Notes: generated by a model from the sequence alone, not told the origin. Positions 3,773 through 59,620 are shown, numbered from the stretch's first letter. The stretch: 64,000 bases of DNA from Pseudomonadota bacterium (GCA_020161215.1 JAIUOM010000001.1:23170-87169); one strand, 5' to 3'. Program-made: numbers and translations.

Positions 3773-4567
3773 TCAGAAGCGCGCCGGGCGCTTTTCCAGG
3801 AAGGCCGCGATGCCCTCCCGGTGCTCCGCGCTGTCGGCGTAGTCATAGGCCGAATTTACTATGCTATTGATAGCTGCTCCGGATTGATTGGCGCCGGCCA
3901 CCTGGGCATTCAGGGCACGAAACGTCTGTTTGTGCAGGCGCGCGGCGCCGGGTGCCAAGGCGGCGATGCGGTCGGCGCGCTCGCGGGCGTGCGGCCACAG
4001 GGCGGTGGGTGCCAGCACGCGGCTGAGAAAGCCCCGCGCCTTCATTTCGGTGGCGTCGAGCACGGCCGCCTCCAGCAGCAGCTCGTGCACCGTGACTTCG
4101 CCGGCCACGCGCGTCACCAGTTCGGCCTCGCGCGGCGCCATGGGAAAGCACAGCTTGGCGATCGGGGCGCCAAAGCGGGCACTGTCGGCCGCCACGCGGA
4201 TGTCGCAGCAACTGGCGATCTCCACGCCCGCGCCCATGCAATGGCCTTCGATGACGGCGAGGATGGGCACGTCGCAGGCCAGCATGGCCGACAAACCGCC
4301 CCACACATCCTCTTCATGAAAGGCGCGCAGGCTGGCCGGGTCGAAGCGGAAACCGGGGTACTCGGCGATGTCGCCGCCGGCGCAGAAATGGCCGCCCTCG
4401 CCGCGCACCAGCACGCAACGCAGATCGGTGCGCGCCTGCACCTGCCCAAACACCTCGCGCAGCGCGCGCCACATGGCGCGCGACATGGCGTTGAACTTGT
4501 CCGGGTTGCGCAGCACGACAGTGGCCACGGCCCCATCGGCCCGCAGATCAATCGATGCGGATGCCAC
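3773..4567 (-). CDS. Enoyl-CoA hydratase/isomerase (crotonase) family protein
   Basis: VATVVLRNPDKFNAMS...FCAGGDI...GHCMGAGVEIA crotonase-fold motifs. Confidence 0.8.
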   Translation of the reverse strand: MASASIDLRADGAVATVVLRNPDKFNAMSRAMWRALREVFGQVQARTDLRCVLVRGEGGHFCAGGDIAEYPGFRFDPASLRAFHEEDVWGGLSAMLACDVPILAVIEGHCMGAGVEIASCCDIRVAADSARFGAPIAKLCFPMAPREAELVTRVAGEVTVHELLLEAAVLDATEMKARGFLSRVLAPTALWPHARERADRIAALAPGAARLHKQTFRALNAQVAGANQSGAAINSIVNSAYDYADSAEHREGIAAFLEKRPARF

Positions 4568-5534
4568 CGGAGGCCTTGACCACCTTCGCCCATTTGGCGA
4601 CTTCCAGCTGCACGAAACCGGCGAAGGCCGGCCCTTCCAGATTGGCGAACTCCGCCCCCTGGCCGGCCCAGATCTGCTTGTTCTCGGGCGTTTGCACCGA
4701 CTTGCGCACGGCCTCGGTCATGGCCGCCTGCATTTCAGGGGGCGTGCCCTTGGGGGCCCAGATACCGTACCAGGTGGCCACGTCGTAGTCCTTCAGCCCG
4801 GATTCGGCCGCCGAGGGCACGTCCGGGAAGGCCGGGTTGCGCGTGCGCCCGGCCATCATCAAGGGCTTGATGCGCCCACCCTTGATGTGCGCCGCCGAGG
4901 AGCCCAGGCCGTCGAACATCATGTCCACCTCGCCGGCAATCAGTGCCTGCAAGGCCGGGCCGGCGCCGCGGTAGGGGATGTGGGTGATGAAGGTGCCGGT
5001 CTGCTGCTTGAACAGCTCGCCCGCCAGGTGGTGCGAGGTGCCGCTGCCGGCCGACGCGTAATTCAGCTTGCCGGGATTTTTCTTGACGTAGTCGATCAGT
5101 TCCTGGATGGTGCGCGCCTCCACGCGCTTGGGGTTGACCACCACCACCTGCGGCACGCGCGCGACCAGGATGAGCGGCGCGAAATCCTGCAGCAGGTCGT
5201 ATTGCAGCTTCGGGTAGACGCTGGGCGCGATGGCGTGGTGCACGCCGCCCATGAAGTAGTTGTAGCCGTCGGCCGGCGCCCGCGCCGCGATGGCCGCACC
5301 CACGGTTCCGCCCCCTCCGCCCTTGTTGTCGATCAACAGGTTCTGGCCGGTCTGCCGGGTGAACTGCGCGCCCAACGGCCGCGCGAAGGCGTCGGTGCCG
5401 CCCCCGGCTGGGAAAGGCACGATCAGGTTCACGGGCTTGGACGGCCAGGGATGCTGTTGCGCCCAGGCACCGAACGAACCCGCCAAGGACGCGGCGGCCA
5501 CGATGGCCTGCCGACGGGAAAGAGACGAAACCAT
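4548..5534 (-). CDS. Bug/TctC-family tripartite tricarboxylate transporter substrate-binding protein
   Basis: Signal peptide with RRQ, then KPVNLIVPFPAGGGTDAFARPL...NKGGGGGTVG, typical of Bug proteins. Confidence 0.8.
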   Translation of the reverse strand: MVSSLSRRQAIVAAASLAGSFGAWAQQHPWPSKPVNLIVPFPAGGGTDAFARPLGAQFTRQTGQNLLIDNKGGGGGTVGAAIAARAPADGYNYFMGGVHHAIAPSVYPKLQYDLLQDFAPLILVARVPQVVVVNPKRVEARTIQELIDYVKKNPGKLNYASAGSGTSHHLAGELFKQQTGTFITHIPYRGAGPALQALIAGEVDMMFDGLGSSAAHIKGGRIKPLMMAGRTRNPAFPDVPSAAESGLKDYDVATWYGIWAPKGTPPEMQAAMTEAVRKSVQTPENKQIWAGQGAEFANLEGPAFAGFVQLEVAKWAKVVKASGGIRID

Positions 5535-5568: not shown

Positions 5569-6981
5569 TTAAGTCTGCAACGATTCGACCGCCGAAGATA
5601 CTGGTAATTTTCCCTGAGCCAGCATGGCGCGGTACTTGTCCAGCCGCCGCAAGTCGTACAGGTAGTTGACCATCAGGCCATAGGACTGTTTCAGCCCCTT
5701 GGGCGACGGATCGGCCCGCCAGTTCAGGCGCTCGACCCGGGCGCCGTTGCCCAAATGAAAGCGTGCCACGGCGTCCACCGGTTTGCCGTCCCCGGTCAGG
5801 GCCTGGCCGAGGTAGTGCGCGGCGGCCCCCAGCAGCCAGCGCACGCGCGCCGATTTTTCATCCAACGACGCCACATCCTCCAGCGCCGCCAGCAACTCGG
5901 GCGCGTCGATCGTCTCGCGCCCGAGTTCGGCGGCCAGCGCCTGGCGAGCGCGTTTGGGCAGGCGGGCCAGCAGGGCTTCGGCGTTGCGGCCCAACCAGGC
6001 ACGCAGGCCGGGGATGGGCGAGAGCGTGGCAAAGGTTTTGAGCTGGGGAAACTCCGCGCGCAGCGTCTCGACCACGCGCTTGATCAGCGAGTCTCCAAAG
6101 CTCACGCCGCGCAGGCCGGCCTGCGTGTTGCTGATGGAGTAGAAGATGGCCGTGCTGGCCTTGCCCGGCACGGCCGGCGCGGCGTCAACGTCGAGCAGGG
6201 GCGTGATGCTGCCGGCCATGTCGTCCAGCAAAGCCACCTCGACGAAAATCAGCGGCTCGTCGGGCAGGCGCGGATGAAAGAAACCGTAGCAGCGGCGGTC
6301 CTCGTCCAGCCGATTCTTGGCGTCGGCCCAGCTGTGGATGTCGTGGACGGCCTCGTACTTGATGAGTTTCTCGATCAGCGAGGCCGGCGAATTCCAGCTG
6401 ATGCGGCGCAGGTCCAGAAAGCCGACGTCGAACCAGGTGCTGAACAGGTCCTCCAGCTCGGCGTCAAGTGCCAGCAGGCGCTTGTCGGTCTTCAGGTGCG
6501 GCAGCAACTCGGCCCGCAGATCGACCAGAAAACGCACCCCTTGCGGAAAAGCGGCAAAGCGCTGCAGCAGCCGCGTGCGCGGCGAGGTAAAGGCCTTGCG
6601 CAGCCGTACCTCGGCGCGCGCTTCCTCGTGCGTGCCACGGGCCGCCTCGTAGGCTTCGCGCGCGCTCTGAATGTCGGTGGCGTCGGGCGTGAACTGCTCG
6701 CTCATCAGCAGCCAGCAATCGCGCCGCTCCTCGGGCGAGGCCTCGGCGTAGCGCCGCGCCACGGCGGCGGCGCGGCGGCCGCCCTCGACCTCGCTCACGC
6801 TCAGATCGGCCACCTGCTGCAGCTCGCGCAGCGTGCGGCGCAGCAGCCACGGCGACAGCGCTTCCTCCTTGCGGCCGAGCATGGCGCTCAGGCGTTCATG
6901 GGTCGAGCGGGCCGCGTCGCGGGCGTCCGGGCCGGTCTCGGCCTTGGCGGGTTTCGGTTCGGTGCTCATGGCCACTACCAC
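5569..6981 (-). CDS. Malonyl-CoA decarboxylase
   Basis: 470 aa; the C-terminal FHLGNGARVERLNWRADPSPKGLKQSYGLMVNYLY is characteristic of the MCD family. Confidence 0.8.
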   Translation of the reverse strand: MVVAMSTEPKPAKAETGPDARDAARSTHERLSAMLGRKEEALSPWLLRRTLRELQQVADLSVSEVEGGRRAAAVARRYAEASPEERRDCWLLMSEQFTPDATDIQSAREAYEAARGTHEEARAEVRLRKAFTSPRTRLLQRFAAFPQGVRFLVDLRAELLPHLKTDKRLLALDAELEDLFSTWFDVGFLDLRRISWNSPASLIEKLIKYEAVHDIHSWADAKNRLDEDRRCYGFFHPRLPDEPLIFVEVALLDDMAGSITPLLDVDAAPAVPGKASTAIFYSISNTQAGLRGVSFGDSLIKRVVETLRAEFPQLKTFATLSPIPGLRAWLGRNAEALLARLPKRARQALAAELGRETIDAPELLAALEDVASLDEKSARVRWLLGAAAHYLGQALTGDGKPVDAVARFHLGNGARVERLNWRADPSPKGLKQSYGLMVNYLYDLRRLDKYRAMLAQGKLPVSSAVESLQT

Positions 6982-19933: not shown

Positions 19934-20557
19934 TCAGTGCAGGTGGCGCGGCCGGCGGCCCCCGCCGTGGCCCGGCGTGCCGCCACCGGGACTGCGCGGC
20001 TTGCCCAGCTCCAGCGAGCTGGTGAGCGCATTGAAGCGGTTGTCGAACAGCTTGTCGATCTCGGCGACCACGCCACCCAGTTCGGCACCGTCGAAATGCC
20101 GCTCCATCAGGCTGACCACGTCCTCGACCAGCAGATCGCGCTGCGCCTGCATGATGGCCTCGGGCGTAGGGCCCACGAACAGCAGGACAAAGTCGTCGCG
20201 CGCATCGCGACCGTCTTCTTCGTCGTCCTCGTCGTAGTCGACGTCGTAGAAGGTGACCTCGATCTGCGAGCCCTCGGCGGAAAGCTCGTTCAGGTTCATG
20301 CACAGATCGTCGAGTTGATGACGGAAGTCGTCCTCGCCGCGCAAGGTCCAGCACATCTGCAGCAGGTGCTGGTGCGGGTCGAAGCGGATACCGGGCTCGT
20401 CCTCGTACAGGCTGGCCGCACCATCGGCCAGCGAGCGTCCACCGGCGTACTTCCACAGGGGTTTGAGGGCTTCCTGCAAGGCATCGAAGCGCACGTCGCC
20501 GCGCAGCTTGACATCGCCATGCACGTGAATCTCGAAAGGTGCGTCGTCGTGATTCAT
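19934..20557 (-). CDS. Hypothetical acidic protein
   Basis: 207-aa ORF with an Asp/Glu-rich centre (YDVDYDEDDEEDGRD). It starts 23 nt downstream of the tRNA-Leu 3' end on the same strand. Confidence 0.5.
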   Translation of the reverse strand: MNHDDAPFEIHVHGDVKLRGDVRFDALQEALKPLWKYAGGRSLADGAASLYEDEPGIRFDPHQHLLQMCWTLRGEDDFRHQLDDLCMNLNELSAEGSQIEVTFYDVDYDEDDEEDGRDARDDFVLLFVGPTPEAIMQAQRDLLVEDVVSLMERHFDGAELGGVVAEIDKLFDNRFNALTSSLELGKPRSPGGGTPGHGGGRRPRHLH

Positions 20558-20580: not shown

Positions 20581-20644
20581 TGGTACCCCGGGCCGGGATC
20601 GAACCGGCACGCCGCCTTTCGGCAAGCGGCGGATTTTAAGTCCG
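20581..20644 (-). pseudogene. 3' part of the split host tRNA-Leu(UAA) gene (anticodon loop to CCA)
   Basis: The reverse complement reads CGGACTTAAAATCCGCCGCTTGCCGAAAGGCGGCGTGCCGGTTCGATCCCGGCCCGGGGTACCA: anticodon-stem 3' strand, long variable arm, T arm GCCGG-TTCGATC-CCGGC, acceptor 3' strand, CCA. The matching 5' half lies at 59359-59397. Confidence 0.8.
20634..20644. repeat. attL core, 11-bp direct repeat TTTTAAGTCCG
   Basis: Identical 11-mer at 59359-59369; it corresponds to the anticodon loop plus part of the stem of tRNA-Leu(UAA). Confidence 0.8.
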
Positions 20645-20661
20645 ATACCGGGGCTCACTAC

Positions 20662-20750
20662 TGGTGCCACCGAGCGGACTCGAACCGCTAAGTCATTGAT
20701 TTGACGAGGGATTTTAAGTCCCCTGTGTTTACCGATTTCACCACGGTGGC
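20662..20750 (-). tRNA. Phage-borne tRNA-Leu (anticodon UAA), 89 nt including CCA
   Basis: The reverse complement GCCACCG-TG-GTGAAATCGGTAAACAC-A-GGGGA-CTTAAAA-TCCCT-C-GTCAAATCAATGAC-TT-AGCGG-TTCGAGT-CCGCT-CGGTGGC-A-CCA folds as a class II cloverleaf. The AT-rich variable arm is unlike the host copy. Confidence 0.8.
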
Positions 20751-20765
20751 GGCAAAGACAGCCAT

Positions 20766-20800
20766 TGTGACACGTCCCTGCCACAGGACTTGCCACAAGG
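20766..20800. promoter_or_regulatory. TGTGACAC-N4-CTGCCACA motif (copy A) plus an extra TGCCACAAG
   Basis: tgtgacacgtccctgccacaggacttgccacaagg. Related copies at 54240-54263 and 59175-59195. Confidence 0.4.
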
Positions 20801-20818: not shown

Positions 20819-20848
20819 AATAAAAACGACGCTTATTGGACAACCCGG
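20819..20848 (+). promoter_or_regulatory. Phage RNAP promoter candidate, copy 1 (29/30 match)
   Basis: aataaaaacgacGcttattggacaacccgg. The other three copies are identical 30-mers. It has an ACGAC core and an AT-rich block before GG, resembling T7-class promoters. Confidence 0.6.
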
Positions 20849-20960
20849 CTTCGGGGGTCCCGTAACGACACGTTCATGAGTTTTTCAGGCGACTTCAGGC
20901 CACCCAGGCTGAAGGTGAAGTGAAAAAGTTGATGAAGGCTATCCCCGTCAACCCCCCTAC

Positions 20961-21007: not shown

Positions 21008-23584
21008 GTGTCGGTTTTATCCCTTAAGGGCGGTGACGCCTTTTCTATTTACTTTGATTCTCTCGATCCCGAGATGGTCTCGGAACAGCTACGGATCGAA
21101 CAGGAAATCATGGAACGCGGGATAGATTCGTATTACCGCAACCTGGAGTCAGCTCGCCAGCGTGAGCAGGAGAACAGCACGAGCTTCGGCACCGCCTTGA
21201 TGAAGCGGTTCAATGCTGTGGTCGCGGATCGCATCGAAGAATTCCTCCGCTCCTTGGATACGGGCAAGCCCGGCAAGCGACACGCCTCCGCAAAGCACTT
21301 GCGGAAGATCAACCCCCGCAAGGCGGCATACCTCGCTCTCCTGGGATGCGTGGCTGGCATCCGATCAACTCGCCACCTCACTTCGGTGGCCTCTGTGGTT
21401 GGCCGAATGGTGGACGACGAGATGCGCCTGGAGGAGCTGAGAGAAAAGGACGCCAAGGAGGCGGGCAAGCTCGTGAAAAACGCCACGGAGCGGGTGTCGC
21501 ACCAGTTCCGCCGCACTTTTGTTCACCGCCACCTCAAGGGCGTCGTTGACGAGCTGCCGGCGCATGAGCGGGTCCACATCGGACTAGCCCTGATCGACTT
21601 CGTTATCGAGACCACGGGGCTGTTCCACGTTCAAGCCGCACGGGGCCGGAAAGGTAAGACGTACAACGAGTTGCTGCCGACACAAGCCGCCCTGGATTGG
21701 ATCGACCGACGCAACGCGGCAACCGAGGCCCTGCGCCCACAGCACGAGCCGATGGTGGTCCCGCCTATGCCTTGGTCGCCGGAGGAGTTCGGGGGCTATT
21801 TAACCTACGCCAAGCGGCCCTACCCGCTCGTGAAAACCCGCAACCAGGGGTTCCTCGCCGAGCTGCCCAACTACGAGATGCCTGTGATCTACGAGGCCAT
21901 CAACAACGTCCAGAACACGGGGTGGCAAGTGAACAACCGCGTCCTGGAAGTGATGAATAGCATGTGGGATGAGGACATTGCCGAGGCGGGTCTGCCCCAC
22001 CGTGGTGGCGTTCCTATCCCCCCAAAGCCGGCTGACATCGCAAGCAACGAGGAGTCCCGCAGGAGCTGGCGCCGCCGCGCTGCCGTCGCCTGGGCCGCAA
22101 ACAAGAGCCTGAGCGGCGAGCGCATCGCCACCAACTTGATGCTGGGCACCGCCAACAGGTTCGCCAAGTACCCGGCAATCTACTTCCCCTACCAGTACGA
22201 CTACCGTGGGCGCCTCTACTCTGTCCCCTCTGGACTATCCCCGCAAGGCGCTGACCCCGCCAAGGGCCTCCTCAGGTTCGCCGAGGGGAAGCCTTTGGGG
22301 GAGCGCGGGGCCTTCTGGCTGGCCTACCAAGGGGCCAACCTCGCCGGCAACGACAAGGTGACCTTCGAGGAGCGTGTGCAATGGGTCTGGGATAACGATG
22401 AGGCCATCCGGGCATGCGCCGCTGATCCGATGAACAACCGGGGCTGGTGCCGAGCCATTGGCGAAATCGCTATCGACTCCCCCTGGCAGTTCCTGGCGTT
22501 CTGTTTCGAGTGGAACGATTACCGGGCGGACCCGGACGGCTTCGTGTCGCACCTGTCGGTGGCAATGGACGGCTCGTGTTCGGGAATCCAACACTTCAGC
22601 GCCATGCTGCGAGACCCCAGCGGCGCCCGCGCTGTGAACCTCACCCCTGAGGAGCGGCCCCAGGACGTGTACCGGATCGTGGCGGACGCCGTGAGTGCCG
22701 AGCTGCGCCGAGACCTGGAACATGGCACCGAGGACAGTCTAAGCCACACCAAGGATGGCGCGGCTGTGGTGATTCAGGGCACCAAGACCCTCGCCGCTCA
22801 GTGGCTGGAGTTCGGGGTGACACGCAAGGTGACCAAGCGCCCGGTGATGACGCTCGCCTACGGGTCGAAAGAGTACGGGTTCACCGACCAGCTCCTTGAC
22901 GACATCCTGGACCCGGCCCTGGCCCACGCCACAGGCCCTGATGGGAGCATCGACAAGGACCTCTACCCGTTCACCGGGGACAAGAACGCGACTGCCCGCT
23001 ACCTCGCCAAGAAAATCTGGGCTTCGGTCACGGAGACCCTGGTGGCGGCAACCTCAGCGATGAAGTGGCTCCAGTCGGTGGCTAACCGGGTCGCCAAGGA
23101 GAACATCCCGGCCCGCTGGGAGAACGCCGTGGGCTTCCCAGTGATGCAGGCGTACCCGGACATGCGTACACGCCGAGTAACGACCAGCCTGCACGGTGGT
23201 CTCACCCTGCCGCTGCTGGAACCGAGCAAGGACGGCGGGCTGAACGTGCGGAAGATGGAGGACGGCATTGCGCCGAACTTCGTCCACTCCTGCGATGCCG
23301 CTCACCTGACCCTCACTGTGGTCCGGGGCGAGGAGTCCGGGGTTACCTCGTTCGCCGTGGTCCATGACTCGTTCGGGACCCACGCCTGCGACATGGACGT
23401 GTATTTCAAGGCGGTCCGCGAGGCGTTCGTGGAAATCTACGGGGGGATAAACGTGCTTGGCAATTTCCAGGACTCAATGGCTGAGTTGGTCGCCCCGGAG
23501 GTGGCGGCGAAGTTCCCGCCGATACCGCCCGTTGGCTCTCTGGACCTAGAGGCCGTCAAGGCGAGCAGGTATTGCTTTGCCTGA
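21008..23584 (+). CDS. T7-type single-subunit DNA-directed RNA polymerase
   Basis: DGSCSGIQHFSAMLRD, TKRPVMTLAYGSKEYGF, GIAPNFVHSCDAAHL, FAVVHDSFGTH and the C-terminal YCFA align with T7 RNAP motifs. GTG start with GGAG 12 nt upstream. Confidence 0.9.
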   Translation: MSVLSLKGGDAFSIYFDSLDPEMVSEQLRIEQEIMERGIDSYYRNLESARQREQENSTSFGTALMKRFNAVVADRIEEFLRSLDTGKPGKRHASAKHLRKINPRKAAYLALLGCVAGIRSTRHLTSVASVVGRMVDDEMRLEELREKDAKEAGKLVKNATERVSHQFRRTFVHRHLKGVVDELPAHERVHIGLALIDFVIETTGLFHVQAARGRKGKTYNELLPTQAALDWIDRRNAATEALRPQHEPMVVPPMPWSPEEFGGYLTYAKRPYPLVKTRNQGFLAELPNYEMPVIYEAINNVQNTGWQVNNRVLEVMNSMWDEDIAEAGLPHRGGVPIPPKPADIASNEESRRSWRRRAAVAWAANKSLSGERIATNLMLGTANRFAKYPAIYFPYQYDYRGRLYSVPSGLSPQGADPAKGLLRFAEGKPLGERGAFWLAYQGANLAGNDKVTFEERVQWVWDNDEAIRACAADPMNNRGWCRAIGEIAIDSPWQFLAFCFEWNDYRADPDGFVSHLSVAMDGSCSGIQHFSAMLRDPSGARAVNLTPEERPQDVYRIVADAVSAELRRDLEHGTEDSLSHTKDGAAVVIQGTKTLAAQWLEFGVTRKVTKRPVMTLAYGSKEYGFTDQLLDDILDPALAHATGPDGSIDKDLYPFTGDKNATARYLAKKIWASVTETLVAATSAMKWLQSVANRVAKENIPARWENAVGFPVMQAYPDMRTRRVTTSLHGGLTLPLLEPSKDGGLNVRKMEDGIAPNFVHSCDAAHLTLTVVRGEESGVTSFAVVHDSFGTHACDMDVYFKAVREAFVEIYGGINVLGNFQDSMAELVAPEVAAKFPPIPPVGSLDLEAVKASRYCFA
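21061..21074. promoter_or_regulatory. Palindromic operator-type site TCTCG-ATCC-CGAGA inside the 5' end of the RNAP gene
   Basis: Perfect 5-bp arms; belongs to the TCTCG-N4-CGAGA family (see findings). Confidence 0.45.
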
Positions 23585-23588
23585 ACAC

Positions 23589-23602
23589 TCTCGCAATCGT
23601 GA
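23589..23602. promoter_or_regulatory. Operator-like site TCTCG-CAAT-CGTGA (1 arm mismatch)
   Basis: Lies just after the RNAP stop and before promoter copy 2. Confidence 0.3.
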
Positions 23603-23624
23603 CCATCCCTACTCCGGGATTTTC

Positions 23625-23654
23625 AATAAAAACGACCCTTATTGGACAACCCGG
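23625..23654 (+). promoter_or_regulatory. Phage RNAP promoter candidate, copy 2
   Basis: aataaaaacgacccttattggacaacccgg, identical to copies 3 and 4. Confidence 0.6.
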
Positions 23655-23696
23655 CGTCTTCGTCAGGTGTCCTCCTCACCCAACCAAAGGATCACC

Positions 23697-33957: not shown

Positions 33958-34236
33958 ATGAACCACCTGTCCATCTTCATCGCCCTCGTTGTCGCCGCCG
34001 TCATCATCCTGACTGTTTGGGTGGCCGTCGTGGCCGTCAAGACATTCATCGCCCAACACCGCGCAGGCCAAGAGCCGACCGTCAAGGGTGCCTTCAAAAG
34101 CGCTCTGGCAGACGTGGCTTTCACCATCGCTACCCCGTTCCGCAAGCTGTGGGCCAAGGTACGTGCTGGGTGGGCCAGTGTCTCTGCCAAGGTCGCAGCC
34201 ATCATGCTCGCCCTGACGATTGCTATCCAAAAATAA
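33958..34236 (+). CDS. Small membrane protein (2 TM)
   Basis: IFIALVVAAVIILTVWVAVVAV and AAIMLALTIAI hydrophobic segments. Confidence 0.5.
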   Translation: MNHLSIFIALVVAAVIILTVWVAVVAVKTFIAQHRAGQEPTVKGAFKSALADVAFTIATPFRKLWAKVRAGWASVSAKVAAIMLALTIAIQK

Positions 34237-34261
34237 AAACGACCCTTATTGGACAACCCGG
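34232..34261 (+). promoter_or_regulatory. Phage RNAP promoter candidate, copy 3 (head of the structural module)
   Basis: Identical 30-mer. Confidence 0.6.
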
Positions 34262-34267
34262 CGAAGT

Positions 34268-51742: not shown

Positions 51743-53476
51743 ATGAAGTTAAAGCCTCCAGGGACGCTCCCACCCCTGAACCGTCTGGCTGACGCAATGC
51801 ACCCAGCACGGCAGGACTTCAGGAAATTCGTTTTCCTGCTGTGGAAGCACCTGAACCTACCCGCCCCCACTGATGTCCAGTACGACATCGCCCGTTACCT
51901 CCAGACCGGCCCGCGTCGGTGCGTTATCGAAGCCTTCCGTGGCGTCGGTAAGTCTTGGCTAACTGCTGGCTTTGTGGTCTGGCTGCTGTGGAACGACCCG
52001 CAGCAAAAAATCCTGGTGGTGTCCGCCTCGAAAGACCGGGCCGACCAATTCTCCAGCTTCGTCAAGCGGATCATCGCGGAGATGCCGCTGGTGCAACACC
52101 TGCAACCGAAACGCGGCCAGCGCGACTCCATGATCGCCTTTGACGTGGGGCCGTCCCGCGCAGACCACTCCCCCTCCGTCAAATCAGTCGGCGTGACCGG
52201 CCAACTAACCGGGTCCCGTGCCGACGTAATCATCCCCGATGACGTGGAGGTCCCCAACAACTCCATGACGCAGACCCAGCGGGACCAGCTCGCTGAGCGT
52301 GTGAAGGAATTCGACGCCATCCTGAAGCCGGGTGGCCGGGTCATCTATCTGGGAACCCCCCAGTGCGAGGCCAGCCTCTACATCGAGTTGCCCGAACGCG
52401 GCTACCAAGTCCGTGTGTGGCCCGCGCTGTACCCCACGCTGAAGCAGATCGACGGCTACAAGGGCACCCTGGCCCCGTTCATCACTCGGCGATTGGAGAA
52501 AGACCTATCGCTCCAAGGCACGACGACTGACCCCAAGCGGTTCTCCGACGATGACCTCATGGAACGCCGGGTGTCCTACGGCAAAGCCGGCTTCGCGCTC
52601 CAGTTCATGCTGGACACCACGCTGGCCGACCTGGACAAGCACCCGTTGAAACTCGCCGACCTCATCACGATGAGCCTGCCACCGACGATGGCGCCAATCA
52701 AGATCGCCTGGGCGGGTGCCTCCGAACAGGCCCTGGCCGAGCTGCCTGCTGTCGGCCTCACAGGGGACAGGTACAACCGCCCCATGTGGTACGCCCCTGA
52801 GCTGACTGAGTACGCCGGGGCTGTCATGACCATCGACAACGCAGATGGCACCCACGATGAGACCGCCTTTGTCGTGGTCAAGCAGCTCCACGGGAACTTG
52901 TTCCTGACCCTCTCCGACTCCGTGATGGGACCGAGTGATGCCAGCATGGGCAAGATCGCCCAGGCCGCTAAGAGCCAAGGTGTCAATCTGATCCGGGTGG
53001 AATCCAATGCGCAGGGGAACACCTTTGCCGAGCTGTTGCGCAAAGCGCTCAAGGCCGCTGGCTATCCGTGCACCGTGGAAACCAAGCGCTCCCACGGCCA
53101 GAAAGAGCTGCGGATCATCAGCACACTTGAGCCGGTACTCGGGGGCCACCGTCTAGTGGTGGACGCAAGGGTCATTGAGCAGGACTATGCCTGCACCCGC
53201 GACGAGCCGCGCAAGAGCCTGTTCTACCAACTGACCCGGATCACACGGGACCGTGGCTCGCTGGGCTTTGACGACCGCATAGACGCCCTGGCCCAAGCTG
53301 TGAGCTACTGGTCTGAGGCACTGAGCCGTGACCAAGAGAAAGCCGCTGAGGCCCACAAGGACCGGGCCATCCACGAGACCTTGAAGGACTTCATTCGGAA
53401 CGCCCTGGGCAAAGGCAAGCGACGTGGCCGCGCAGCATCCGCTTTCAGCACGAACAGGGGGCTCTCAGGCCGTTAA
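51743..53476 (+). CDS. Terminase large subunit (gp19-like)
   Basis: 577 aa; CVIEAFRGVGKSW Walker A-like, VIIPDDVE Walker B-like; T7 gp19 size and position. Confidence 0.85.
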   Translation: MKLKPPGTLPPLNRLADAMHPARQDFRKFVFLLWKHLNLPAPTDVQYDIARYLQTGPRRCVIEAFRGVGKSWLTAGFVVWLLWNDPQQKILVVSASKDRADQFSSFVKRIIAEMPLVQHLQPKRGQRDSMIAFDVGPSRADHSPSVKSVGVTGQLTGSRADVIIPDDVEVPNNSMTQTQRDQLAERVKEFDAILKPGGRVIYLGTPQCEASLYIELPERGYQVRVWPALYPTLKQIDGYKGTLAPFITRRLEKDLSLQGTTTDPKRFSDDDLMERRVSYGKAGFALQFMLDTTLADLDKHPLKLADLITMSLPPTMAPIKIAWAGASEQALAELPAVGLTGDRYNRPMWYAPELTEYAGAVMTIDNADGTHDETAFVVVKQLHGNLFLTLSDSVMGPSDASMGKIAQAAKSQGVNLIRVESNAQGNTFAELLRKALKAAGYPCTVETKRSHGQKELRIISTLEPVLGGHRLVVDARVIEQDYACTRDEPRKSLFYQLTRITRDRGSLGFDDRIDALAQAVSYWSEALSRDQEKAAEAHKDRAIHETLKDFIRNALGKGKRRGRAASAFSTNRGLSGR

Positions 53477-53687: not shown

Positions 53688-53717
53688 AATAAAAACGACC
53701 CTTATTGGACAACCCGG
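53688..53717 (+). promoter_or_regulatory. Phage RNAP promoter candidate, copy 4 (phiOR-like position, facing the non-coding terminus region)
   Basis: Identical 30-mer. Confidence 0.6.
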
Positions 53718-53973
53718 TGTGAATCGGCCTTGTCTGGGGAGCGTCCCTACTCATGGGTAGGACGGCGGCCTTTGGCAACTTTGCCGCTTGGGGACTAGTG
53801 AAGCCAACCAGGAGTCCAGATGGACTCTGTGGAATGTGGGTTTATGTTCTCTCTGCTCCTACCTCTTGTCTATCTCTGGGACCCCGTAAAGGCCCTCTAG
53901 AGGTTCAATCTACGGGGGGTAGGGGGGGAGTTGAAAACAGCTCGCTCCCAGAGAGTCCTACCTCAACTACCTC

Positions 53974-54473: not shown

Positions 54474-54480
54474 CCCCATG

Positions 54481-54648
54481 CCACCTCTAGGCCACCTCCA
54501 GGCACTGCACCGAGCCACCCCAGGCACTGCACCGAGCCACCTCCAGGCCACCTCCAGGCCACCTCCAGGCACCCCCAGGCCACCTCCAGGCCACCTCCAG
54601 GCACTGCACCTCTAGGCCACCTCCAGGCACTACACCGGGCCACCCAAG
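54481..54648 (+). repeat. Degenerate tandem array: ~11 copies of the 11-bp unit GCCACCTCCAG interspersed with 4 copies of GCACTGCACCGA-like units
   Basis: Read directly. Flanked by AT-rich DNA at 54355-54476 and 54652-54745. Confidence 0.8.
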
Positions 54649-54669
54649 AGGTTTAGCTTGAAACTATCG

Positions 54670-54685: not shown

Positions 54686-54697
54686 AGTTAATTCCGA

Positions 54698-54727
54698 TTG
54701 ACTTAATACTCTCGATATCGGGATACT
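54698..54727 (+). promoter_or_regulatory. Sigma70-type early promoter TTGACT-N18-GATACT
   Basis: The hexamers equal those I recall for T7 A1 (TTGACT/GATACT). The spacer holds operator TCTCGATATCGGGA. 47 nt upstream of the first early ORF. Confidence 0.55.
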
Positions 54728-54740
54728 CTCGACATCGGTT
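54710..54740. promoter_or_regulatory. Operator pair O1: TCTCGATATCGGGA + TCTCGACATCGGTT (17-bp register)
   Basis: The first 14-mer is identical at 55336 and 59218; near-palindrome of TCTCGATATCGAGA. Confidence 0.5.
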
Positions 54741-54774: not shown

Positions 54775-55332
54775 TTGATTAAGACCCCCGTCAACGAATA
54801 CACGATGAACAAAGCAGGCGCCGAGCTGGGCCGCTGGATGATCCAGAGAGCTGCCCGTTTGGCCCGTGATGTTGGATTCAGCTACGAGCCGGCTGGTGAT
54901 GCCCCGGAGACCTACGAAGCTGTCCTGGCTGCTGTACGCCGTTCGCAGTGTGAGCGGGTTCCCTTCCCGGTTTGGGCAGGCGGATCGGACGCCACCATCT
55001 ATGGCAGTGCGGAGGCCAATTACGCTTTCCGCTACTGGCATGACATGGCCCATATCGCCTCTACGGGTGACTTCACAGTCGCCGGGGAACTGGCTGCTGT
55101 CCGTATGCAGCTCACCGAACTTGCTCGCACTTTCGGTACAGACTCAATCGAATACGCCCTGTTCGTTGCTGACACTCTCGGGCAGGTTTGGTTCCACGAG
55201 CGCACCGAGGGCGGATTCGTCCAGGATCAAAAAAGCTGGGTGTTTGCTGTCGTCCAGGCTCACGCGGACACCCACCGAGGAGACCTCCAGGGACTTGAGG
55301 CTCATTTCCTAGAGGGCCTTCGTTCGTCCTAA
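54775..55332 (+). CDS. Hypothetical early protein (185 aa)
   Basis: TTG start 7 nt after AGGAG; first ORF downstream of the early promoter. Confidence 0.5.
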   Translation: MIKTPVNEYTMNKAGAELGRWMIQRAARLARDVGFSYEPAGDAPETYEAVLAAVRRSQCERVPFPVWAGGSDATIYGSAEANYAFRYWHDMAHIASTGDFTVAGELAAVRMQLTELARTFGTDSIEYALFVADTLGQVWFHERTEGGFVQDQKSWVFAVVQAHADTHRGDLQGLEAHFLEGLRSS

Positions 55333-55335
55333 CCC

Positions 55336-55369
55336 TCTCGATATCGGGACTATCTCGGGTTTGCCGAGA
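55336..55369. promoter_or_regulatory. Operator pair O2: TCTCGATATCGGGA + TCTCGG-GTTTG-CCGAGA
   Basis: Same 17-bp register as O1. Confidence 0.5.
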
Positions 55370-57697: not shown

Positions 57698-58084
57698 GTG
57701 AACGAAAAACTAACAATCGAGGAGCGTATTGCAACGAACCGCCTGTATGCGGTGTTGGAGGAACTGGGGGGCGTACATCCGAATATGACGGTAGCGCAGC
57801 TCAAGACTCTCGTTGCAGCAGCGTTGAATCCAGGCAGCACCGTGACCGAGCTTGGAAAGCTGACTGGAACCACCCTCTCGTCCGCTTCGCGGCACGTCGA
57901 TGCACTTGGCCCGCTCCAGGCGACCCGCAAGATCGGTATGGATTTGGTGACATCTGACTATGACGCCCTAAACAGGCGCCGGAAAGTGGTCCAGCTCACC
58001 GCAGACGGCTACCGCCTCCTACGCGCGGTGCTGATGCGGATGGCCGGTCCTGCTGGGATCACTGTGACACGTCCTAAGGAGTAA
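57698..58084 (+). CDS. MarR-like winged-helix transcriptional regulator
   Basis: MTVAQLKTLVAAALNPGSTVTELGKLTGTTLSSASRHVDAL...RRKVVQLTADGYRLL. GTG start after AAGGAAA; 4 nt upstream of the integrase gene. Confidence 0.6.
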   Translation: MNEKLTIEERIATNRLYAVLEELGGVHPNMTVAQLKTLVAAALNPGSTVTELGKLTGTTLSSASRHVDALGPLQATRKIGMDLVTSDYDALNRRRKVVQLTADGYRLLRAVLMRMAGPAGITVTRPKE

Positions 58085-58088
58085 TTGA

Positions 58089-59312
58089 ATGCCTATCTAT
58101 GAACGAGGAGGCGCCTTTCAGGTGTCCGTGGGGTCAGGGGCTGCGCGAAAGCGCGAGACGACCTCCACCAGAGCGGAAGCCGAGGCCCTTGAACTGGCCC
58201 TGCTGGCCGAGTTGCGCGATGAAAAGCTGCGACGTGTAGCGGCCCGCGCCCAGGGTGACCCAGCAAAGACTGTGGGGCACGCTGTCGAGGCCGCTATTCG
58301 GGACCACTGGCTGGACACCAAGAGCCGACGCACTACGGAGCTGAATGTGCGCGACATCGCCGCCATCCTCGGATGGGACCGCCCGCTGGTGAGCCTCATG
58401 ACGAGTGACGTGGACGACGCCGTTGCGGAGCTGATTGAGCGCGGAATCACCGGGTCCACGATCAACCGCAAGCTGTCCGCCCTGAGCGTGTCCCTGCGCA
58501 ACGCCCGCCGCAAAGGGTGGGTGAAGGACCTACCGGACATCCTCAGGAGGAAAGAATCGGAATGTCGCATCGGCTGGTACACGGAGGAGACCGAGAAGCT
58601 GATGCTGGACACATGCGAGCGGCTGGGTCTGAATGCCCTGGCGAACTTCATCACGGTTGGCATCGACACTGGGTTCCGCCGCACGGAGATGCTGCGGCTG
58701 GTCCCTGCCGACTTAGCTGGCGGTCTGGTCATCCTGCATGCTGGGGAAACCAAGAGCGGTAAGGCCCGCGCTGTGCCCGCTACGGAGTCCGTGGTTGCCG
58801 TCTTTGAAGCTGCCAAGGGGGTCGGTAGCCCCCGCGTGTTTCAGAGCCTCACAGACTCAATCCTGAGGTCGCAATGGTCCCAGCTCCGGGAGGCCCTACA
58901 TCGAGAGCAAGACCCGTTCTTCATCGTGCACACCCTGCGTCATACCACAGCCACCCGGCTGGCCTTCGCTGGGGCCACCGCACCGCAGATCATGGCGTTC
59001 ATGGGGCACTCAAGCCTTCAGGTCTCGCAGAAGTACATCCACCTTGCTGCGGAACACGTCAAAGGGATTGAAGTGCTGTTGACCAGGAAGGCCCCAAGGG
59101 TGGTTTCAGCCCCCCTGCCGACACCTCTGCCGGTTCCCGCTCAACCCGCTGCTGGGGACCCTACTGAGGCACCTTGTGACACCAAACCTGCCACAAACCC
59201 CCTTTTTCGCCAATCATTCTCGATATCGGGACCATCTCAATATCGAGTTACAAATCAACAGTTTAGTGGGTTTTCACTGGGCAACTTAGGAGGGCCGTGG
59301 CAGAAAACATAA
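58089..59312 (+). CDS. Tyrosine recombinase/integrase
   Basis: RRTEMLRL (Arg I), HTLRHTTATRL (HxxR), MGHSSLQVSQKYIH (His...Tyr). About 85 non-conserved-looking C-terminal residues overlap regulatory motifs. Confidence 0.85.
   Translation: MPIYERGGAFQVSVGSGAARKRETTSTRAEAEALELALLAELRDEKLRRVAARAQGDPAKTVGHAVEAAIRDHWLDTKSRRTTELNVRDIAAILGWDRPLVSLMTSDVDDAVAELIERGITGSTINRKLSALSVSLRNARRKGWVKDLPDILRRKESECRIGWYTEETEKLMLDTCERLGLNALANFITVGIDTGFRRTEMLRLVPADLAGGLVILHAGETKSGKARAVPATESVVAVFEAAKGVGSPRVFQSLTDSILRSQWSQLREALHREQDPFFIVHTLRHTTATRLAFAGATAPQIMAFMGHSSLQVSQKYIHLAAEHVKGIEVLLTRKAPRVVSAPLPTPLPVPAQPAAGDPTEAPCDTKPATNPLFRQSFSISGPSQYRVTNQQFSGFSLGNLGGPWQKT
59175..59195. promoter_or_regulatory. TGTGACAC-N5-CTGCCACA motif (copy C)
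   Basis: tgtgacaccaaacctgccaca, 164 bp from the attR core. Confidence 0.4.
59218..59248. promoter_or_regulatory. Operator pair O4: TCTCGATATCGGGA + TCTCAATATCGAGT
   Basis: Same 14-mer and 17-bp register as O1/O2; inside the integrase 3' end. Confidence 0.5.
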
Positions 59313-59358: not shown

Positions 59359-59369
59359 TTTTAAGTCCG
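59359..59369. repeat. attR core, 11-bp direct repeat TTTTAAGTCCG
   Basis: Identical to 20634-20644. Confidence 0.8.
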
Positions 59370-59397
59370 CTGTGTCTACCTGTTTCACCACCGGGGC
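59359..59397 (-). pseudogene. 5' part of the split host tRNA-Leu(UAA) gene (acceptor strand, D arm, anticodon stem 5' strand and loop)
   Basis: The reverse complement is GCCCCGG-TG-GTGAAACAGGTAGACAC-A-GCGGA-CTTAAAA. The sequence then continues into non-tRNA phage DNA. Confidence 0.8.
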
Positions 59398-59493: not shown

Positions 59494-59532
59494 GATAAAA
59501 GAAAAAACCACCCGTGCTTGTGGCACGCGTGG
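59494..59532 (-). terminator. Rho-independent terminator downstream of tRNA-Lys
   Basis: 10-bp stem (one mismatch) ccacgcgtgc/gcacgggtgg followed by TTTTTTCTTTT on the minus strand. Confidence 0.6.
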
Positions 59533-59544
59533 CTTTCGTATTTT

Positions 59545-59620
59545 TGGTGGGTCGTGCGTGACTCGAACACGCGACCAACGGATTAAAAGTCCGCTGCTCT
59601 ACCAACTGAGCTAACGACCC
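59545..59620 (-). tRNA. tRNA-Lys (anticodon UUU)
   Basis: The reverse complement GGGTCGTTAGCTCAGTTGGTAGAGCAGCGGACTTTTAATCCGTTGGTCGCGTGTTCGAGTCACGCACGACCCACCA folds as a canonical 76-nt cloverleaf. Confidence 0.9.

Follow-up and report, generated by a model that had tools for sequence, protein, structure and literature searches.

The 64,000-nucleotide (nt) stretch of Pseudomonadota DNA analysed here (GCA_020161215.1, JAIUOM010000001.1:23170-87169; the window, over its full length) carries a T7-like prophage whose integration has split a host transfer RNA (tRNA) gene, tRNA-Leu(UAA), without rebuilding it, and a complete tRNA-Leu(UAA) of the phage's own lies just inside the left junction. We read this arrangement as tRNA-dependent lysogeny, with a temperate phage of T7-like type and a Comamonadaceae-like betaproteobacterium as its host, and put the probability of this reading at roughly 0.8. 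All four sequence-level hallmarks of such lysogeny were found: a tyrosine integrase, a bacterial attachment site (attB) within a tRNA gene, an 11-bp core that leaves no rebuilt tRNA, and a cognate phage tRNA. The observation and the mechanism set out in an earlier sequence-only reading of this DNA are right; the novelty that it implied for the strategy fell away, as the mechanism has already been described (PMC10865867; bioRxiv 10.1101/410191).

Integration splits a host tRNA-Leu(UAA) gene

On the minus strand, positions 59397 to 59359 read GCCCCGGTGGTGAAACAGGTAGACACAGCGGACTTAAAA and then run into unrelated phage DNA (GACACTGCTAAAG...), and positions 20633 to 20581 read TCCGCCGCTTGCCGAAAGGCGGCGTGCCGGTTCGATCCCGGCCCGGGGTACCA, preceded at 20644 to 20634 by a second copy of CGGACTTAAAA. 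This core is made up of the 3' end of the 5' anticodon-stem strand and the 7-nt anticodon loop. When 59397 to 59359 is joined to 20633 to 20581, the product is a 92-nt class II tRNA-Leu(taa) with an encoded CCA that is accepted by ARAGORN. Integration has split the host gene within its anticodon stem-loop, in line with the sequence-only claim of a split in the anticodon loop. Neither ARAGORN nor Rfam found a tRNA at either junction (59359-59397; 20581-20654), and with the 5' half running into phage DNA no intact host copy remains at the locus, again as proposed. The gene is left as two pieces 38.7 kb apart, and the displaced half has no copy in the phage. The predicted phage attachment site (attP) is GGTATCGGACTTAAAAGACACTGC and the predicted attB is ACAGCGGACTTAAAATCCGCC; identity between the two is confined to the 11 bp. 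The canonical restoring arrangement, in which attP carries the displaced segment and one junction holds an intact tRNA, is thus absent, and the departure from the usual tRNA-targeting phages had been correctly described.

The repeat is not what carries this finding, since by hand arithmetic about 190 pairs of identical 11-mers are expected by chance over 40 kb and the repeat alone is not significant. The split is proven because the joined tRNA and its flanks match intact, syntenic genes in relatives. A degenerate pattern matching all four attachment-site (att) configurations (attB, attP, attL and attR) returned at least 120 genome loci. Among those listed, nearly all belong to Comamonadaceae or other Burkholderiales and almost all are in the intact configuration; the host sequence was matched exactly on both sides in 66, and ARAGORN found an intact tRNA-Leu(taa) in all five loci that were checked by name and in 116 of 120 overall. 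The joined host tRNA is identical to an intact tRNA-Leu(UAA) at 90 of 92 positions in L156, at 88 of 92 in Ottowia (L019) and at 85 of 92 in L076. The G1-U72 pair of the joined tRNA also occurs in L076 and is therefore natural and not a sign of decay.

The locus obtained by in-silico excision aligned with that of Ottowia L019 (79% over 2.1 kb), of L076 (87%), and of Variovorax, Ramlibacter and others. These alignments begin at base 1 of the tRNA and cross the junction unbroken into the DUF6806 and MFS genes. In L019 and L076 this DUF6806-MFS pair directly follows the intact tRNA gene, and in the window the DUF6806 gene (19934-20557) follows the displaced 3' half. The empty site in relatives is accordingly an intact tRNA-Leu(UAA) upstream of DUF6806-MFS, in agreement with the sequence-only reading.

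Three further candidates were rejected. A group I intron in the anticodon loop of tRNA-Leu(UAA) was ruled out by the insert, which is a 38.7-kb phage with direct-repeat flanks, and a chance 11-mer repeat by the match of the joined tRNA to intact genes of relatives. Crossover within the phage's own tRNA would be expected to yield chimeric tRNAs, and none were seen.

The source is probably a metagenome assembly, and several contigs break at or near the core, as might be the case if the apparent split were an assembly artefact or the element a dead remnant. We find this explanation hardly credible, because both junctions recur with identical sequence in independent ENA, JGI and Logan assemblies and the prophage has a full T7-like gene set with long intact open reading frames (ORFs). 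The right junction is also present in L147 and L150-L154, and one JGI contig repeats it including the tRNA-Lys gene.

The phage-borne tRNA-Leu(UAA)

Only two tRNAs were found in the window by ARAGORN and Rfam, a Lys(ttt) in the host flank and the phage tRNA-Leu(taa), which Rfam (RF00005) scores at 59.3 bits against a gathering score of 29. The tRNA software therefore accepted both the phage tRNA, in the window, and the joined host tRNA, in the excised attB. The phage tRNA has the same orientation as the host's gene for tRNA-Leu, is antisense to the phage protein genes, and has its 3' end 17 nt from the left core copy. Only 66 aligned positions match between it (89 nt) and the host tRNA (92 nt), so that the sequence-only description of a complete and divergent tRNA inside the left junction was accurate. 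Its closest counterparts are in phages: it is identical at 82 of 89 positions to the tRNA of contig L163, although the L163 integrase is only 48% identical, and at 73 of 89 to that of Limnohabitans phage YIMV22061.

Six phage tRNAs were compared on a common 23-pair cloverleaf. Compensatory double changes occur in 16 of the 23 pairs, none of the pairs is broken, and A73 and CCA are conserved in all six. Together with the closeness of the window's tRNA to that of L163 and its distance from the host tRNA, this compensation points to long-term purifying selection in the phage lineage, which is the signature of a gene maintained there and not of a recent or decaying pick-up. Selection on the structure also lends indirect support to the possibility that viable lysogens require the phage tRNA.

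A different view would make the phage tRNA a functionless, passive remnant of imprecise excision from an earlier host, which is how the authors of the LUZ100 study read the integrase-adjacent tRNA-Leu of that phage. Both GCCCCGG in the spacer between tRNA and core and a degenerate stem-loop in YIMV22061 do resemble leftovers of tRNA fragments. The retention of every stem pair in diverged tRNAs, largely by double changes, the retained A73 and CCA, and a tRNA that is far from the host's but close to that of a phage with a distant integrase make this explanation very unlikely, although capture may still account for the first arrival of the tRNA.

The spacer GCCCCGG repeats the host tRNA's 5' acceptor strand exactly. 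The chance of such a match within the spacer was estimated by hand from base composition at about 0.002, and the motif probably remains from a 5' tRNA segment once carried by the phage. The left junction (20581-20654, minus strand) is consequently a hybrid of phage GCCCCGG, TAT, the core and the host 3' half, which begins 7 nt past the CCA end of the phage tRNA and is predicted to fold into a tRNA-like cloverleaf that lacks the D arm (-35.9 kcal/mol, z -2.1). This predicted fold may be a vestige of the 5' tRNA segment in attP, or a processing signal.

Core and cargo tRNA in related phages

Relatives of the integrase with 41-51% identity were found in the unintegrated T7-like contigs L159, L161, L163, L164 and L167/L168 and in the cultured Limnohabitans phage YIMV22061 (L170). 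The integrase and RNA polymerase genes are contiguous in these contigs, and in every one a complete tRNA-Leu lies between them. A second, isolated copy of the anticodon stem-loop lies 7-40 nt from each tRNA-Leu and has the same anticodon. Core and cargo tRNA agree in their anticodon in seven of seven lineages, with UAA in five and CAA in two; the probability of complete agreement by chance with those margins is about 1/21 (hand arithmetic).

Two architectures, which are mirror images of each other, can be distinguished. In architecture A both tRNA and core run antisense to the integrase, with the core 7-40 nt past the CCA of the tRNA. In the window, CACCA is followed after 17 nt by CGGACTTAAAA-GACACTGCT; the spacing and core are 7 nt and CGGACTTAAAA-GCTACTGCG in L163, 9 nt and AGACTCAAAA-GCTACAGCC in L161, 9 nt and AGATTCAAAA-TCAGCAGTG in L159, and about 40 nt and AGACTTAAAA-GACGATGCG in YIMV22061. 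Architecture B, seen in L164 and L167/L168, runs from the integrase through arm sites to the core (A/C)GGACTTAAAA, which is followed after about 25 nt by a tRNA-Leu(UAA) on the sense strand. The minus strand of YIMV22061 at 5230-5290 contains two loop-like copies past the tRNA, a degenerate stem-loop GCGGACTTAAACTCCG and the probable core, with TGTG(C/T)CA motifs flanking the copies on both sides.

An integrated relative (L165/L166, contigs SRR8772120_1859 and SRR18810025_7127, ~6240-6330) reads integrase, TGTGGCA/TGTGACA motifs, AGGACTCAAAA and the 3' half of a host tRNA-Leu(CAA). There is no rebuilt tRNA at this junction, and host genes for MCP and VgrG lie beyond it; the other end of the prophage is predicted to hold a phage tRNA-Leu(CAA). 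In L051 (CALJIV010000021.1, positions 5900-5950) the 5' half of a tRNA-Leu(UAA) runs into GACGCTGCTA with no 3' half, and an integrase-like ORF with 32% identity lies 1.6 kb downstream of this unrepaired junction. The contig is labelled Phycisphaerales, a label that may reflect mis-binning.

A nucleotide search of the prophage against GenBank phages gave only short, distant matches. When the RNA polymerase and the integrase were each searched singly against IMG/VR, only relatives of 36-40% identity came up, which lack tRNAs, and Ralstonia phage RsoP1EGY (integrase 38% identical) has no tRNA between its integrase and RNA polymerase genes. Not all T7-like integrases, therefore, come with this module. 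Within the integrase clade found here, including the Limnohabitans phage and possibly LUZ100, the shared arrangement suggests that tRNA-dependent lysogeny is the rule.

Codon use and dependence of the host on the prophage

Several points weigh against tRNA-dependent lysogeny as the account of this locus. The upstream flank, with its tRNA-Lys, is unlike the Gly(GCC)-Cys(GCA)-Leu(UAA) operon of relatives. That operon, with Leu last, was found at 79 of 116 related loci among the matches listed and Lys was upstream in none; the spacer upstream of the 5' half was aligned with the relatives' Cys-Leu spacers, and no homology emerged. Because the flank differs, the ancestral locus of this species is inferred and not observed, and its left flank has been rearranged at some time. 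A DUF6806 protein identical to that of the window occurs in 19 contigs and an identical integrase in 14, and each of these either is in the integrated state or stops at the core. Neither an empty site of the same species nor a free attP turned up in ENA, JGI or Logan contigs or in an IMG/VR pattern search; the degenerate four-att pattern gave no attP in IMG/VR, and a longer, species-specific pattern in JGI metagenomes gave one attR of this prophage and two intact tRNAs of other organisms. The lysogen is thus the only form seen in the sampled material. A scan for the sigma-70 consensus upstream of the phage tRNA gave no promoter, the sole promoter-like sign there being CACAAT, conserved 12-18 nt upstream of the tRNA in four phages, and expression and charging of the phage tRNA in the lysogen are predictions. 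Finally, UUA accounts for 1 of 6575 host codons in the window, so loss of the tRNA might be tolerated even without complementation, and the host DNA in view is the 64-kb window, with a second tRNA-Leu(UAA) possible elsewhere.

Were there such a second intact copy, the disruption would be neutral and the lysogen independent of the prophage tRNA. The limited host sequence leaves room for this, as does the presence of tRNA-Lys in place of Gly-Cys, which marks the locus as rearranged relative to those of relatives. It is nevertheless unlikely, because relatives have a single Leu(UAA) gene: the 120 matches listed come from 119 distinct assemblies, a complete Polaromonas chromosome has one match, and 116 of the 120 loci each hold a single Leu(UAA). 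The species-specific pattern, moreover, recovered no junction of this organism other than attR from JGI metagenomes.

The phage uses UUA in 18 of 10542 codons, about 11-fold more commonly than the host, on a rough gene call in the window based on GC at third codon positions. These codons occur in the RNA polymerase, portal, terminase and integrase genes, among others. The comparison of UUA usage proposed in the sequence-only reading therefore came out as a clear difference between phage and host. The dependence of the host that went with it is a possibility, and the phage tRNA may matter less to this host than to a low-GC host. Few host genes may need tRNA-Leu(UAA), and the phage itself clearly benefits.

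On this basis the phage tRNA could mainly translate phage genes during lytic growth, its closeness to attP being incidental and the loss of the host gene tolerated by a cell that hardly uses UUA. The difference in codon use speaks for such a role. It predicts, however, neither a tRNA placed 7-40 nt from the core nor a joint switch of both anticodons across seven lineages, and as a full explanation we consider it possible but on balance doubtful. Supply of the host and supply of the phage are not mutually exclusive, and both are compatible with the architecture.

Proposed mechanism

The tyrosine integrase recombined the 11-bp attP core with its exact match in the host's tRNA-Leu(UAA) gene. That gene is left as two non-functional pieces, with the complete phage tRNA-Leu(UAA) close to the core. 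Under tRNA-dependent lysogeny, the phage tRNA gene would itself be part of attP, between the arm-type integrase sites and the core, and would be expressed in the lysogen, where it would take over UUA decoding; in lytic growth it would also serve the relatively frequent UUA codons of the phage. Precise excision would restore the host tRNA-Leu(UAA), so the arrangement is not an addiction module, but the locus would be without a Leu(UAA) gene if the prophage were lost imprecisely.

We put forward more tentatively, and as less likely to be right than wrong, that in this T7-like clade the tRNA is a built-in part of attP, that core and cargo tRNA retarget as one 'cut-and-replace' cassette, and that the hybrid fold could aid processing. 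If true, this would explain the joint UAA/CAA anticodon switch and the two mirror-image architectures. One architecture would place the phage tRNA immediately behind the promoter of the host tRNA; in the other, which is that of the window, the D-arm-less hybrid could serve as a signal for processing of the transcript of the phage tRNA.

The prophage, its integrase and putative arm-type sites

The region between about 20 and 60 kb has a GC content of about 0.61, compared with 0.64-0.70 in the flanks. Pfam searches identified RNA polymerase, primase/helicase, family A DNA polymerase, portal, nozzle, tail fibre, terminase (51743-53476) and integrase genes. The genes follow the T7-like order of RNA polymerase, SSB, endonuclease I, amidase, primase/helicase, DNA polymerase, portal, tail tube/nozzle, tail fibre and terminase, an assignment that also rests on gene calls for the same prophage in L001/L147. 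This full T7-like gene set, together with the integrase/regulator module, which is known from temperate T7-like phages such as LUZ100, identifies the element as a temperate T7-like prophage. When the prophage ends are joined, integrase, attP and tRNA adjoin the RNA polymerase gene, as in L159-L163 and L170. Coordinates are compiled in Table 1.

Table 1. Features of the split tRNA-Leu(UAA) locus and the prophage, in window coordinates
Feature	Position	Strand	Basis
Host tRNA-Leu(UAA), displaced 3' part: 3' strand of anticodon stem, long variable arm, T arm, acceptor 3' strand, A73, CCA	20581-20633	-	join to 59359-59397
T7-like (Autographiviridae-type) prophage, 38.7 kb	20634-59358	+	Pfam hits, GC
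Left core copy, 11 bp, CGGACTTAAAA (4 nt of anticodon stem and 7-nt anticodon loop)	20634-20644	-	exact direct repeat
Spacer between phage tRNA and core, 17 nt, containing GCCCCGG (20654 to 20648)	20645-20661	-	read from sequence
Phage tRNA-Leu(UAA), complete, 89 nt, A73 and CCA encoded, short AT-rich variable arm	20662-20750	-	ARAGORN, Rfam
Two TGTGGCA motifs, putative P-arm integrase sites, upstream of phage tRNA	20779-20785, 20791-20797	-	motif clustering
Single-subunit phage RNA polymerase, first gene right of the tRNA	21008-23584	+	PF00940 1.6e-107, PF14700
Transcriptional regulator, directly upstream of integrase	57698-58084	+	phrog_9665, 4.7e-16
Tyrosine integrase, ending 47 nt from right core copy	58089-59312	+	PF00589 1.7e-15; phrog_1 6.5e-38
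TGTGGCA motif, putative P' arm-type site, +163 from core, geometry as in L161 and L163	59189-59195	-	motif clustering
Right core copy, 11 bp, CGGACTTAAAA	59359-59369	-	exact direct repeat
Host tRNA-Leu(UAA), remaining 5' part: acceptor 5' strand, D arm, start of anticodon stem	59370-59397	-	sequence
Terminator-like site	59507-59527		predicted
Host tRNA-Lys(UUU) with terminator-like hairpin, upstream of split tRNA-Leu	59545-59620	-	ARAGORN, Rfam 75.2 bits

The integrase ORF encodes 407 residues, and its homology to relatives (335-353 residues) and to PHROG integrases is limited to residues ~6-336. The C-terminal tail of about 70 residues (59098-59312) overlaps the putative P' arm, where relatives have a separate small ORF. 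In four phages, motifs of the form TGTG(G/T/C)CA cluster at -130 to -180 and +110 to +180 relative to the core, and three of the eight copies of the 7-mer in the prophage are those at 20779, 20791 and 59189. We infer that these are arm-type integrase sites, which would place the phage tRNA gene inside attP between the P arm and the core.

Three families of repeats were also noted. A 34-nt element, AATAAAAACGACCCTTATTGGACAACCCGGC, is present in four copies that are 88-100% identical (20819-20852, 23625-23658, 34232-34265 and 53688-53721, plus strand); all are intergenic and on the phage coding strand, and they are likely promoters for the phage RNA polymerase. A repeat with the near-palindrome CTCTCGATATCGGGA occurs on the plus strand at 21046-21082, 23574-23610, 54695-54731, 55321-55357 and 59203-59239, and is a candidate operator for the regulator encoded upstream of the integrase; one copy lies within the P' arm of attP, in the 3' tail of the integrase ORF. 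Short tandem repeats of the CCACCTCCAGG type cluster at 54480-54650, in a gene-poor stretch past the terminase gene, and may mark virion genome ends or terminal repeats.

Novelty and implications

New elements are the betaproteobacterial host group, the closest cultured relative, whose own paper leaves integration undiscussed, and the compensatory changes in 16 of 23 stem pairs of the phage tRNAs. The clade-wide co-variation of core and cargo anticodons, the two mirror-image architectures and the putative arm sites flanking the tRNA are, as read from the sequences, also new. The range of tRNA-dependent lysogeny, for which genetics existed only in actinobacteriophages and which had been noted in podoviruses of SAR11, is extended to temperate T7-like phages of freshwater and wastewater Betaproteobacteria.

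Predictors of prophages or of attB that seek long tRNA-derived repeats will miss such elements, and tRNA counts in lysogens can hide an isoacceptor that a prophage alone provides. Vectors for integration that use these integrases would have to include the cognate tRNA. The nearly UUA-free host also raises the question of whether the phage tRNA is kept mainly for the host or for the UUA-richer phage genes.

Comparison with known systems

In canonical tRNA-targeting systems of tyrosine integrases (P4, L5 and HP1 type), attP duplicates the displaced segment, typically 40-50 bp or more, and an intact tRNA is rebuilt. Crossover in the anticodon loop is a known sublocation for such integrases. The present phage is unlike these types in that identity extends over 11 bp and nothing is rebuilt.

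The term tRNA-dependent lysogeny was introduced by Guerrero-Bustamante and Hatfull (mBio 2024) for actinobacteriophages including Fionnbharth, LeBron, Cain and Gaia, and is defined there by a tyrosine integrase, by an attB within a tRNA gene, by a core of some 8-17 bp, by the lack of a rebuilt tRNA, and by the need of lysogeny for a cognate tRNA from the phage (PMC10865867). The requirement was shown genetically for mycobacteriophages; Gaia targets tRNA-Leu(CAA) with an 8-bp core, and the authors considered that the strategy may occur elsewhere, citing Lj965 (PMC10865867). The window's prophage resembles these systems in its tyrosine integrase, its attB in a tRNA gene, its short core, the lack of a rebuilt tRNA and a phage tRNA of the same anticodon. 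The actinophages are siphoviruses whose need for the phage tRNA was shown by genetics, whereas the present element is a T7-like podovirus of a betaproteobacterium, has its tRNA 17 nt from the core and is described from its sequence.

Closer in phage type are the T7-like pelagiphages HTVC025P, HTVC119P and HTVC200P, in which a host tRNA-Leu is disrupted mid-gene and uncomplemented and the phage tRNA-Leu is 'likely used instead', and HTVC011P and HTVC109P, which have partial 5' tRNA ends at attP (Zhao et al., bioRxiv 10.1101/410191). Their integrase likewise adjoins the RNA polymerase gene, and the spacer GCCCCGG described above resembles the 5' ends in HTVC011P and HTVC109P. The pelagiphages differ in their hosts (SAR11, AT-rich Alphaproteobacteria) and in anticodons of UAG or UAA, and the pelagiphage integrases that were matched (HTVC048P, HTVC021P and HTVC121P) are about 32-33% identical over about 58% of the protein. 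Neither the co-variation of core and cargo anticodons nor the arm-site geometry has been described for them (bioRxiv 10.1101/410191).

The closest cultured relative is Limnohabitans phage YIMV22061 (PQ492660.1), whose integrase is 48% identical and whose host also belongs to the Comamonadaceae. The order of integrase, core-like AGACTTAAAA, antisense tRNA-Leu(UAA) and RNA polymerase is the same as here, and the difference is that YIMV22061 is a free phage genome. Its published description reports '1 tRNA' and an integrase only, and integration was not analysed (PMC12195039).

Pseudomonas phage LUZ100 (L172) is likewise a T7-like phage of temperate type, with a MarR-like regulator, an integrase and an antisense tRNA-Leu(UAA) beside the integrase. 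It differs in that the tRNA (2641-2726) lies between the regulator and the integrase, that is, upstream of the integrase, and in that the integrase is 34% identical. The tRNA was interpreted as an excision remnant, and integration was not demonstrated (PMC10134795). An isolated core-like AGACTTAAAA is nevertheless present at ~3893-3905, about 90 nt past the integrase stop codon and flanked by TGTGTCG-like motifs, and LUZ100 may also use tRNA-dependent lysogeny instead of carrying an excision remnant.

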